A program made the translations under genes and the position numbers. 64,000 nt of DNA from Eledone cirrhosa (Eukaryota), in the NCBI GenBank assembly GCA_964016885.1, contig OZ024745.1, forward strand, positions 49,972,001-50,036,000, in the 5' to 3' direction. The notes beneath the pieces were generated by a model, which saw only the letters and a program-made list of their open reading frames with translations, ran no database searches and was not told where the DNA came from. Shown here in pieces: positions 2,142-26,440 of this stretch. Position 1 is the stretch's first letter. Each line of letters starts with the position of its first letter.

Positions 2142-2212
2142 TATTTTATTATGCGCATTTCAAAAACAAATATCATCATGCAATAACATTTGTGTTTTCA
2201 TCAGATAAAATA
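2142..2212 (-). ncRNA. Type I hammerhead ribozyme (inverted copy of 2622-2692)
   Basis: Reverse complement reads TATTTTAT-CTGATGA-stem II-GAAA-TGCGCA-TA-ATAAAATA. Confidence 0.8.
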
Positions 2213-2621
2213 GGAGGACATGATATGAAGGTTAAAAATACTTGTGGATAGTGCAGTTTTAAATCAACATATGAGAAGTAGTTTTAGATTGATGTGTGAT
2301 ATTGTGGAAAAAATTTTTTTTGAGGGGGGGTGGGGTGGAAAGGATGAAAAAGAGGAGGAGATGAGAGTAAAAAGTGGAGGGGGAGGAGTATAATGAGGAA
2401 GGATGAGATAGGAGGAGAGATGGCTGATAGAGAGAGAGAGATAGCTTTTATAACTGAGAAAAATATATTGTTTTACATAGAGAGGTTGAAAAACCGTTGG
2501 AAGATAATGTATAAATTAAAAGAATTTGAAAATATCACACATCAATCTAAAACTACTTTTCATGTGTTGATTTAAAACTGCACTATCCACAAGTATTTTT
2601 AACCTTCATATCATGTCCTCC

Positions 2622-2692
2622 TATTTTATCTGATGAAAACACAAATGTTATTGCATGATGATATTTGTTTTTGAAATGCGCATAATAAAATA
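2622..2692 (+). ncRNA. Type I hammerhead ribozyme, palindromic stem III
   Basis: Stem I TATTTTAT/ATAAAATA; core CTGATGA 2630-2636; long stem II AAACACAAATGTTATT/GATGATATTTGTTTTT; GAAA 2673-2676; TGCGCA palindrome; AUA cleavage triplet ending at 2684. Confidence 0.82.
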
Positions 2693-3161
2693 CATGGAAC
2701 TCATTTAACCATCTTTTGATCTTATATATTATGTATACTCCAGTCCTACAAATTGTAGAGTGCTTCTTATCCGATATCTGCATTGCTTTATTGTACTACA
2801 ATAAAACTCACCTCCTACATATATATATATATGTTTTTTTATTTTTATTTTGTATTTTAATTCCTTTACCCCTTTATATTTCATCAACCCTGCATTCTTG
2901 CATTGTCTTCTCTCCTTAATGATTACTTGAAAGGATACGCCTGTGGACGTCAGGCAGACGGGTGGCCACGCATGGATACGTGCGATAACTTGAGCGAGAT
3001 AAAGATAATAGCCGCTAAATTATAAGAAACCTCCAGCTGTGACCTGACCGAAAACAATAAGTGAATACAGTAAAATACCATTATGACAGAATTTGTGGTA
3101 GCATATAAGAAGGAATCGGGATAATATTCAACTACACGCAGACGCGAGTTTACACGATAAA

Positions 3162-3253
3162 ATATATCTGAGGAGTTCTCGATTCCAGAGTTAGGTTCGA
3201 TCATTAATAGATCGTTCCTCGAGTTGTTCGACAGTGAAACATATGTAATATGT
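3162..3253 (+). ncRNA. Type I hammerhead-like fold with extended stem II
   Basis: ATATAT-CTGAGGA(3168-3174)-GTTCTCGA...CGATC/GATCG...TCGACAGT-GAAA(3236-3239)-CATATG-TA-ATATGT; palindromic stem III; GUA triplet. Confidence 0.65.
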
Positions 3254-3475
3254 AATAAAAAATGTATATGATGCAACACTAATTCTTTGTACTCTCATAT
3301 ATTAATACTATTCACACTATGCTCCGCAAGAACATCCAGTGCTCATTAGGCATACCGACTATGGACGCAATTAACTTGCACCTTTACACCTTATTATGTG
3401 TATATATACACACGCACACAATCATACACGTGCACGCACGCACACACATATGTATATATATATATATATATATGT

Positions 3476-5204
3476 GGGACCAGCTATTGAGATTGACGAA
3501 TATAGGGTCCAAGAGGCGATTAGGGAAATGAAAAATGGTAAGGCGGCCGGACCATCTGGAATAGTTGCTGAGATGCTGAAGGCATCAGGGGACGTAGGCA
3601 CTAAACTGGTTGCACGCATAATCAATCAGGCTATATATGGTGGTGTCATACCCAAAGACTGGTGCAGCAGTATTCTCATAAATTGCTACAAAGGTAAAGG
3701 GGATGCTTTGGAGAGGAGCAATTATAGGGGTATAAAACTGATAGATGAGGTTATGAAAGTGGCAGAAAGGATTTTAGCACAACTAATTAGAGAAAGGGTC
3801 AAACTAGATGAGATGCAGTTTGGTTTTGTGCCTGGGAAGAGTACAACAGATGCCCTCTTCTTGGTGAGACAAATGCAAGAGAGGTTCTTAGAGAAGAATA
3901 AGCCACTATACTTAGCCTTTGTTGACCTAGAGAAGGCCTTTGATAGGGTACCCCGATCTGTCATCTGGTGGTCCCTAAGGAAGCTGGGTGTTGAGGAATG
4001 GCTTGTAAGGACAGTGCAAACCTTGTACAGAGGTACTCTCAGTAAAGTCAGGGTAGGAATGGAGTTTAGTGAGGAATTCCAGATACAAGTAGGAGTACAT
4101 CAGGGTTCGGTCCTCAGCCCGCTCTTGTTCATTATAGTCCTCCAAGCCATAACAGAGGAGTTTAAGACTGGCTGTCCATGGGAACTTCTCTATGCTGACG
4201 ATCTGGCTCTTATGGCAGAATCAGTAGAGGAGCTAGAGAATAAATTCCGGCGATGGAAACAGCAGTTGGAAGCAAGAGGACTGAGAGTAAATCTAGCTAA
4301 GACAAAAGTGTTGATGAGTAGAAAAGAGGACAAAACCCTGATTCCGTCAGGGAAATGGCCATGTTCGATATGCAGAAAAGGAACTGGCATAAATTCTATA
4401 AAATGCACACAATGTAGGTCCTGGGTACACAAGAGATGTAGCGGGATAGCAGGCAAACTAACAGGTAGGGAGAAATATGTATGCAGTAGATGTACAGGGA
4501 AGTTAGACAGTAGAAGTCGCACTGATAGACACATTTTTCAAATGCGAGAGGGCGCTATAGAAGTGGTGGATAGCTTCCGGTACCTAGGAGATCAGATTAG
4601 CATGGGAGGAGGGTGTTCCGAGGCCATAGTATCTAGAATAAGGACGGGTTGGAAGAAGTTTAGGGAGCTGCTTCCTCTGTTGACGAAGAAGGGTTTCTCC
4701 CTGCGTACGAAAGGCCGGTTGTATGATGCCTGTGTGAGGAGCGCGATGCTGCATGGTAGTGAGACATGGGCAGCTACCGCAGAAGATATGCGACGGCTGG
4801 AGAGAAATGAGGCAAGCATGCTCCGTTGGATGTGCAGTGTAAATGTGCGTGAACGACCCAGCATAAATGTGTTGAGAGAGAAACTGTGTCTGAGAGGGAT
4901 AGAATGTAGTGTACGGGAGAGGAGACTGAGGTGGTATGGACATGTGATGCGCATGGAGGATGACCGATGGGTGAAGAAGTGCCAGGAAATGCCAGTTGAA
5001 GGAAGACGTGGTAGAGGTAGACCACGAAAAACATGGGCGGAGGTGGTGAGAACAGACCTCAGATCATTGAAGCTCACGGTGGAGATGACGAGGGACCGTG
5101 ACGAGTGGAGAGATGCTGTGCTGAATAAGACCCGTCCCACCCTTGCAAGCAGGGAAAAGCGGACGTAAAATGATGATGATGATGATGATGATGATGATGA
5201 TGAT
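3476..5204 (+). mobile_element. 5'-truncated RTE-clade LINE (family A), open RT + PHD-like finger, (GAT)n tail
   Basis: Uninterrupted frame to 5168 with KAAGPSG, NYRGIKL, MQFGFVPG, FVDLEKAFD, GVHQGSVLSP, YADD and C-x2-C..C-x2-C..H-x2-C..C-x2-C. The stop codon is followed directly by (GAT)n. The 5' end abuts (TA)n. Confidence 0.95.
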
Positions 5205-25319: not shown

Positions 25320-25442
25320 TATATATATATATATATATACATGTATTGAAGTTTCCATTGAAAATTGAAAAAGTCATAGGAGTGAAGAGTGCTCTATGTA
25401 AGTACCAGAGCTAAATTTAATGTATAATAAACAATACAATAT

Positions 25443-25520
25443 AATTACCTCATTACCAGAGGTTTCCCGAATAAGACGAATACGAAAAACATCCTCATTC
25501 GTTCATCGGACAAGGCAATT
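25443..25520 (-). ncRNA. Type I hammerhead with variant CCGATGA core
   Basis: Reverse complement AATTGCCTTGT-CCGATGA-ACGAATGAGGA..TCTTATTCGG-GAAA-CC TCT GG-TA-ATGAGGTAATT; 11-bp stem I including G-U pairs. Confidence 0.75.
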
Positions 25521-25879
25521 TAAAACATAGTGACATCAGGTAGTGAAAGAAAATGGGGGAAGTAAAATGTGGAATGTGAAGATATTAGGTAAGTGAATCA
25601 AAAAGTAGGGGGGGGGGTCACTGGTGGATGTAAAGTAAAAATAAAAATAAAGTTAAAAATGAAAGTAAATCAGAAAGAGAAGTCTGTAAAGAGGATAATT
25701 TAAGGAAAGTAAAGAACAAGAGTTTATGGAGGATAAGTATCTGAAAGTGAGTTAACTTTATATGAGCTGGAAAGCAAGTGTAATTTCATGTGTGGGCAAC
25801 TGGTGAAAATTTCTGTTTTTGACTTATTTTAGTAAAAAAGTAACATATTCGATGCCAGGAAATGTGATATACATATATA

Positions 25880-26262
25880 CATCATCATCATCATCATTTT
25901 ACGTCCGCTTTTCCCTGCTTGCAAGGGTGGGACGGGAACTGATTCTGGCTTGATTTCTACAGCTGGATGCCCTTCCTAACACCAACCTCATTTATAGTGA
26001 GTGCTGGGTGTTTTTCTTCCGTGGCGCCTACATGTCCACTTTACAGTGTGGGCTGGGTGCTTTTTTGCTATGGCACCTCCACGACCACTTTGCAGTGGAA
26101 TGATAGGGACCCCAGTCTCTATCATCTCATTTCTGCAGCTGAGTAAACTGGAGCAATGTGAAATAAATGTCTTGCTCAAGGAAACAACACATCACCTGGT
26201 CTGAGAATTGAACTCAACCTTCTGATTGCAAGCCCAATGCTCTAACCACTAAGCCATGTGCC
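25880..26262 (-). mobile_element. Complete tRNA-derived SINE with RTE-derived 3' tail
   Basis: tRNA head (TGGCTTAGTGG, GAGTTCAATTC), then CTTGAGCAAGACA core, RTE family B 3' UTR segment, family A terminus and (GAT)n. Confidence 0.85.
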
Positions 26263-26379
26263 TTATAGATATATACATACACATATGTGAATTGCTTTAT
26301 TCGTTTTCTTACAACATAGTTACAATGCTTCAGAAAATGAAGTTAACAGGAAGTTTCTTCAGAGAACAACACACATTAC

Positions 26380-26440
26380 TTCTCTGAAGATTCTTAGCAA
26401 ACACTCACTTTGCTGAAACATCATAGCTATGTTGTAAGAA
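26380..26440 (+). ncRNA. Type I hammerhead-like fold; degenerate inverted partner at 26306-26366 (minus)
   Basis: TTCT-CTGAAGA-..AGCAAA CACTCAC TTTGCT-GAAA-CATCATAGCTATGTTG (near palindrome)-TA-AGAA. The partner has GAAG instead of GAAA. Confidence 0.6.

Follow-up and report, generated by a model that had tools for sequence, protein, structure and literature searches.

Hammerhead-bearing islands beside (TA)n tracts in Eledone cirrhosa: probable truncated ends of several Penelope-like element families

The window analyzed here is a stretch of 64,000 nucleotides from Eledone cirrhosa (assembly GCA_964016885.1, contig OZ024745.1, forward-strand positions 49,972,001 to 50,036,000). All positions given below count from its first base. 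It is animal DNA, dense in long interspersed nuclear element (LINE) fragments and in (TA)n arrays. Its composition, together with an Argonauta entry among the few named protein matches, makes a cephalopod host likely. For positions 2142 to 26440 (the span), a first-pass annotation had named eight type I hammerhead ribozyme sites in six families, which are called A to F in order of position. The span also contains a full-length Penelope-like element (PLE), which carries a hammerhead in each of its two pseudo-long terminal repeats (pseudo-LTRs). Two further hammerhead islands (family G) are located downstream of the span.

Type I hammerheads were searched with a descriptor that consists of the core C[TC]GANGA, a helix II of at least 3 pairs, GAAA, a helix III that is paired or palindromic, UH, and a helix I of at least 4 pairs. 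The window contains 10 matches, and 8 of these fall in bases 1-27,000. The latter correspond to six of the eight sites named previously, together with the two sites in the pseudo-LTRs of the PLE. None was found in any of 200 dinucleotide shuffles at each of two block sizes, so that the control proposed along with the first-pass annotation yields no comparable density. The descriptor was loosened after the matches were known, but the excess over shuffles persists at all settings. With the strict core (CTGANGA), 5 matches compare with a shuffle mean of 0.02, and with the loosest rule, 10 matches compare with a mean of 0.28 (60 shuffles each, bases 1-27,000).

The CUGANGA, GAAA and NUH core elements, in type I order, are exact in A, B, C and D, and E has a CCGA variant. 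Helices I and II can be paired in A to E. The hammerheads are thus borne out for five of the six families (A to E pass the descriptor), whereas the pair at 26306 and 26380 (F) is degenerate. Helix III is an imperfect palindrome in D, E and F. The descriptor treats a palindrome there as optional, yet a perfect one is present in A, B, C, the full PLE and G. Type II and type III hammerheads are absent from the whole window, as is a U3-A8 core variant from bases 1-27,000. Rfam reports no hammerhead family among the best 150 of 579 matches in the window, nor among all seven matches for 2112-3440. Its microRNA and snoRNA matches in the window were dismissed as reflecting (TA)n and chance. Exact-pattern scans of metagenome contigs for islands A and E gave no match, the pattern for A having contained a minority letter.

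The full-length PLE is of the Hydra type and occupies positions 5492-10153 (forward strand). Its pseudo-LTRs (5492-5833 and 9815-10153) form a 99% direct repeat, which makes it likely that the element is young. The open reading frame (ORF) (6050-8533, forward strand) is intact and codes for 827 amino acids, a reverse transcriptase (RT) followed by a GIY-YIG endonuclease, as assigned from homologues (110) and motifs. The motifs, by residue, are RWR (38), DKT (123), CNCRSSRTC (CxCX5C, 686), YIG (720), CNLC (CxxC, 784) and CQH (CxH, 812). A motif scan of this ORF found no GxK[FY], and Pfam named no family for it. The element is placed in the Hydra clade by its homologues and motifs, the motif set matching the clade definition. 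An identification as Naiad was dropped because the endonuclease is C-terminal and the motifs are those of Hydra. An Asn-rich insert lies between the RT and the endonuclease, and a 1.3-kb spacer precedes the 3' pseudo-LTR. The hammerhead in the 5' pseudo-LTR (5747-5793, forward strand) has the core CCGAAGA and the palindrome ACAATTGT. That in the 3' pseudo-LTR is at 10071-10117 (forward strand). The element ends in (TC)n(TA)n.

Two ORF-less inverted islands of one family, G1 (41239-41922) and G2 (54667-55133), have arms on both strands. They are ~76% like the pseudo-LTR and 5' untranslated region (UTR) of the full PLE (5680-6004), which ties ORF-less hammerhead islands of this window directly to a PLE family. 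Each is arranged head-to-head, with one arm ending at the pseudo-LTR end and the other extending by ~170 bases, the same anatomy as in island A (see below). In G1, the minus arm consists of the pseudo-LTR plus ~170 bases of 5' UTR, and the plus arm is a short pseudo-LTR that carries the hammerhead (41833-41879). The hammerhead of G2 is at 55044-55090. Helix III reads CAATTG in the PLE and CAGCTG in G, so that the palindrome is kept. The plus arms of G1 and G2 end in a short unit, TTTCATA, which is present three times. Both islands abut, at the same tail end, 5-kb (TA)n arrays (36025-41240 and 49584-54668). These, like a third very long array at 60019-64000, show a strong strand bias (C over G), and the arrays at 49584 and 60019 share a left flank of 480 bases that is 99% identical.

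Island E (25345-25872, reverse strand) contains a hammerhead at 25443-25520 on the same strand. It has the core CCGATGA, a GUA site, a helix II region of 36 bases, an 11-bp helix I and, according to folding, a closed helix III. The C-terminus of a Hydra-type endonuclease, stop codon included, is preserved as a remnant on the same strand as the hammerhead (25724-25828, reverse strand). It lies ~200 bases upstream of the hammerhead, where the island has its 5' edge, and was detected with a profile built from 106 homologue C-termini, excluding the protein from the window. The top match of this profile outside the full PLE is 25766-25819 (reverse strand; 11.6 bits, E=0.0097 window-wide). This score is reached by none of 2000 shuffles, the best of which scored 5.1, and a pairwise comparison gives E=8e-4. 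A full-length Hydra profile detects island E only at E ~10, so the C-terminal profile was required. By this match, island E is a 5'-truncated coding element, and the remnant argues for plain truncation over a dedicated non-autonomous element.

Island A consists of two arms in opposite orientation. The inverted arm (2112-2533, reverse strand) has its 3' end next to (TA)n at 2042-2111. The direct arm (2531-2820, forward strand) reaches a common 3' end at ~2737, followed by a tail of ~85 bases to 2820 and then by (TA)n, so that one arm stops at the 2737-type end and the other bears the tail. Positions 2112-2303 mirror 2531-2722 (190 of 192 bases alike). The remainder of the inverted arm (2304-2533) is additional C/T-rich upstream sequence, cut at 2533. 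Each arm carries a hammerhead (2142-2212, reverse strand, and 2622-2692, forward strand) with a helix II region of 36 bases, the helix III palindrome ATGCGCAT (TGCGCA) and an AUA site.

Families A and B were compared with reads from four runs at 82% likeness (the raw-read run being restriction site-associated DNA sequencing), with read and contig depths that are not to be equated with copy numbers. Two runs from other organisms gave just 59 and 41 short records on A and were excluded. Family A is plainly abundant in the genome. Its summed contig depth is 0.43-1.28 million at 2607-2786, compared to 2-39 at 2832-2966, and the corresponding raw-read depths are ~630-2270 and 1-15. High depth extends to ~2830. 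At 2737, loose ends enter (TA)n in 57 contigs of one run and 272 reads of another. Depth declines toward the 5' side, and other copies run beyond 2533 with a common loose end in the reads. Most copies seem to have a common fixed 5' boundary: one arm has a seemingly fixed 5' end ~60 bases upstream of the core, and the other arm is variable. Joints from 2255-2272 land anywhere in 2565-2789, among the 15 of 85 joints listed.

Family B, which is also plainly abundant in the genome, is represented by an island at approximately 2832-3390 (forward strand), delimited by read depth. Its hammerhead (3162-3253, forward strand) has a helix II region of 61 bases, the palindrome ACATATGT (CATATG) and a GUA site. 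Depth is maximal at 3192-3281, falls after ~3285 and fades toward the 5' side, with a summed contig depth of 35,000-61,000 and a raw-read depth of ~870-880. The loose ends of B in the reads are not TA. In helix II, all four of the majority differences listed convert a wobble or mismatch to a Watson-Crick pair. The window copy is thus a decayed member of a better-paired family.

The anatomy of families C to F was taken from a single window copy each. Island C (approximately 15665-15975, reverse strand) contains a hammerhead (15787-15829, reverse strand) with the palindrome ACTAGT, a GUA site and a T-T mismatch at the base of helix II. In the region around it (15547-16326), two copies of a 55-base unit share one strand, and a third, inverted copy across a (TA)n array abuts a fragment of an RTE-type LINE. 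Island D (22359-22923, reverse strand) ends in (TA)n 24 bases past the GUA site of its hammerhead (22376-22426, reverse strand), in which helix II is marginal (-0.1 kcal/mol). Family F (26292-26454) is a head-to-head inverted pair of degenerate hammerheads, the arms being alike in 56 of 75 bases. The copy at 26380-26440 (forward strand) matches the loosest descriptor only, with 5 extra bases preceding helix II. The copy at 26306-26366 (reverse strand) matches no descriptor, having GAAG for GAAA and an unpaired helix II.

The islands had been described as located near (TA)n, and this proved to be directional. With a cut-off of (TA)4 or longer, which was set post hoc, such a run lies 24-170 bases downstream of seven of the eight cleavage sites, and none lies upstream within 209 bases. 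As background, the fraction of positions that have such a run within 210 bases is 0.20 for all non-TA positions and 0.38 for unique-looking DNA. The stems had been called unrelated in sequence, in agreement with a blastn comparison among the six islands, which yields a single 22-base match (between B and E, E=0.008). The view that no ORF is nearby had to be abandoned. RT frames of RTE-type LINEs adjoin most islands, the PLE ORF lies in the span, and the island at 25443 holds the endonuclease remnant. As for the proposal that the islands account for much of the unique DNA, they cover 2800 bases (12% of the span) out of 5567 that look unique, but A and B are actually high-copy repeats.

We conclude that the islands probably represent 3' ends (pseudo-LTRs) from no fewer than five or six distinct endonuclease-bearing PLE families, present as heavily 5'-truncated insertions into (TA)n. 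At least some of the parent PLEs likely belong to the Hydra clade. For A, B, C, D and F, it is PLE parentage that we infer. An element's GIY-YIG endonuclease would nick TA-rich DNA, and the RT would start at one of two points on the RNA, the pseudo-LTR end or the tail beyond it. Copying would generally halt within some hundreds of bases, and inverted pairs would result from the frequent head-to-head joining of another short copy. An inverted second copy and a one-sided tail are both present in A, an inverted pair is present in F, and G1 and G2 conform as well, while these features are unseen in B, D and E. With the hammerhead 25-170 bases from the 3' end, almost all fragments would retain it and lose the ORF, and the set would appear diverse because the stems are family-specific. 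Internal priming near the 5' end of the RNA would yield solo pseudo-LTRs with a fixed 5' boundary and may account for A. In A, B and C, helix III is palindromic without a loop, so that cleavage would need two paired copies, and those that stand alone or on opposite strands are expected to be inactive remnants for the most part. In D and E, helix III could close without a partner. Any cleavage by these hammerheads is a prediction.

Several observations weigh against truncated PLE ends. Minimum-free-energy folding is ordinary for six of seven stretches, the exception being 25443 (z=-3.2). The C-terminal profile gave nothing upstream of A, B, C, D and F (one of 10 regions was positive, that of E), and these five were never joined to an ORF in the data examined. 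The tails of ~85 and ~170 bases compare with 30-40 bp in print. As RTE LINE fragments also border (TA)n, proximity to TA is by itself weak evidence. The depth of A drops ~3-4 fold in one step near 2272, and the left end is at 2255-2272 in 14 of the 15 joints listed (85 in all). Such a fixed 5' boundary is not predicted by random truncation and leaves room for a dedicated non-autonomous element. At least family A might then be an RNA of ~175-260 bases that starts at a fixed point ~60 bases upstream of the core and that PLE proteins copy in trans, in the manner of a short interspersed nuclear element (SINE). The boundary and depth step, the very high depth and the small share of depth that reaches the upstream sequence speak in favor, as do published precedents. 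These are the putatively non-autonomous Chlamys PLEs (PMC8557442) and pseudo-LTRs that suffice in cis (Arkhipova et al., PMC3846280). However, the window copy extends 260 bases past the boundary and other copies go beyond 2533, and island E holds a coding remnant. A fixed boundary is also expected from the transcription start of the parent combined with internal RT priming close to the RNA's 5' end, as seen in vitro for Poseidon (PMC11167929). A SINE-like origin of A, which can coexist with truncated PLE ends in the other families, is in our view unlikely. It is somewhat less doubtful, though still improbable, that A is a hammerhead element of fixed length (~175-260 bases), dispersed rather than in tandem, that ranks among the commonest repeats of the genome, be it a PLE-dependent SINE or a product of internal priming.

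The islands could also be monomers of non-LTR retrozymes, which consist of hammerhead repeats in tandem and have a cycle via circular RNA. Type I hammerheads, the lack of an ORF and units of a few hundred bases fit with this, helix III of E and D can close alone, and the preprint by Li, Clavereau and Pollet (2026) includes solo monomers and derives retrozymes from pseudo-LTRs. Published non-LTR retrozymes have head-to-tail repeats of 150-450 bp with at least two hammerheads (PMC7229834 and the same preprint). No such repeats with at least two same-strand hammerheads were found in the window or among 15 of the 85 joints of A, which also include no backward joint. In the window, no family occurs twice on one strand at retrozyme spacing, the pairs being inverted, and none of the islands is covered by a unit from Tandem Repeats Finder. 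A retrozyme, as defined, is not supported for these islands, and we regard this origin as very unlikely. The first-pass annotation had offered both retrozyme-like elements and solo PLE pseudo-LTRs mobilized by PLE proteins. The latter part is supported, in view of the anatomy, the remnant in E and the G islands, while the former is not, as no island has a same-strand tandem pair. Chance resemblance in AT-rich DNA is hardly credible as the source of the motifs. This would be consistent with the degenerate F, the weak helix II in the window copy of B, an extra weak match at 14359-14406 under loose rules and the absence of Rfam support. It is opposed by the empty shuffles, by majority letters that mend helix II of B and by the palindromic helix III that A, B, C, G and the PLE have although the descriptor did not demand one. 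Chance is refuted for A to E by the shuffles and possible for F. It is likely for 14359-14406, which was dropped.

Other features of the window complete the picture. Fragments of RTE-type LINEs are found at 3475-5205, 16319-17640, 17660-19984, 20230-22278 and 24077-25320, with (GAT)n tails adjoining (TA)n. One of them has a PHD finger within its RT frame. Short interspersed repeats of ~100-120 bases, likely SINE fragments, occur at 11421-11541, 23910-24027, 26150-26264 and 32212-33090. An 88-base near-palindrome (13870-13957) is partially repeated at 14485-14510, beside (TA)n. This region (13855-14510) has no convincing hammerhead and could be where a further PLE-type element ends. On the reverse strand, a frame at 27203-27637 contains the start of an AMP-binding domain (Pfam, E=6e-15) and is likely an exon of a host gene for an acyl-CoA synthetase or fatty-acid transport protein.

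With truncated PLE ends, half of the unique-looking DNA in the span would be explained as retroelement debris. The set would also add new natural hammerhead variants, with a long helix II, a CCGA core, and a helix III with and without a loop. The start and stop of PLE insertions could be probed with the help of a very abundant family whose 5' boundary is fixed. If the tentative view of A as a fixed-length element is true, the mechanism of PLE insertion would be recorded across the genome in the sharp 5' boundary of A, its pair of 3' ends and its inverted arm of variable extent. Much of what is annotated as "unclassified SINE" in cephalopods could then be ribozyme-bearing PLE derivatives. In an annotation of Octopus vulgaris, 31 PLE families are given as recently active and 893 SINE families as unclassified, and the word ribozyme does not appear in its accessible text.

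The general pattern has been published already. The families themselves are new members of it, so that the result is largely ordinary and would not surprise a specialist. Descriptions of these hammerhead families in print were not found in a search that left aside most subscription papers, Repbase/Dfam and the supplements of the 2026 retrozyme preprint. Within the same limits, two sources dealt with hammerheads of octopuses and other cephalopods, namely Craig et al. 2021 (PMC8557442) and, for the giant squid, a tally of 235 Rfam hammerheads (PMC6962438). Further comparison literature is PMC6765202, PMC13282606 and PMC8969392. According to Cervera and de la Pena 2014 (PMC4209133), varied minimal hammerheads number in the thousands per genome; most of them are solo, and they are read as probable truncated PLEs. 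Some form opposite-strand pairs 100-700 bp apart, and a few reside in full PLEs. The window agrees with these metazoan PLE hammerheads in type I topology, a palindromic helix III, an odd base at the foot of helix II and many unrelated families. It differs in the long helix II of A, B and E (36, 61 and 36 bases), in the ability of D and E to close helix III alone, and in CCGA for CUGA in E and the full PLE. In vitro, PLE hammerheads cleave poorly and depend on a dimer or protein, and they are dispensable for insertion (PMC4209133, PMC11167929). In the in vitro work of Frangieh et al. 2024 (PMC11167929), a PLE used two internal priming sites, one on either side of the tail; protein was required for cleavage by its hammerhead, and insertion did not depend on that cleavage. 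The islands share with non-LTR retrozymes (PMC7229834) a non-coding nature, a type I hammerhead, kinship to pseudo-LTRs and the use of PLE proteins that is thought to apply there.

A further close comparison is with the Hydra clade, defined by Craig et al. 2021, who also describe 5' truncation, inverted copies, tails and TA targeting. As in this clade, the PLE of the window has an RT and then a GIY-YIG endonuclease at the C-terminus, the motifs RWK-like, DKT, CxCX5C, CxxC and CxH, (TA)n targets, and a hammerhead near the 3' end. Unlike the clade as published, it is 4.7 kb long, has an Asn-rich insert and a 1.3-kb spacer, and the tails in the window exceed 30-40 bp. Hydra-1_Obim from Octopus bimaculoides has TA targets and a hammerhead ~100 bases from its end, from which the hammerhead of the window PLE differs as listed. 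By eye, no island matches the 3' ends given for Naiad_Ovul or Naiad_Obim (PMC8557442). Many Hydra hammerheads have a T-T pair at the base of helix II, as do C and D. Hydra-2_Amil has the layout of island E, namely an endonuclease C-terminus, a UTR, a hammerhead and (TA)n (all PMC8557442). Solo and inverted pseudo-LTRs are known from the Penelopes of Adineta vaga (Arkhipova et al. 2013, PMC3846280). These are of low copy number, whereas A and B are very abundant. The window shares with them head-to-head pseudo-LTRs, an optional tail, solo copies, Asn-rich inserts and a long spacer before the 3' pseudo-LTR.

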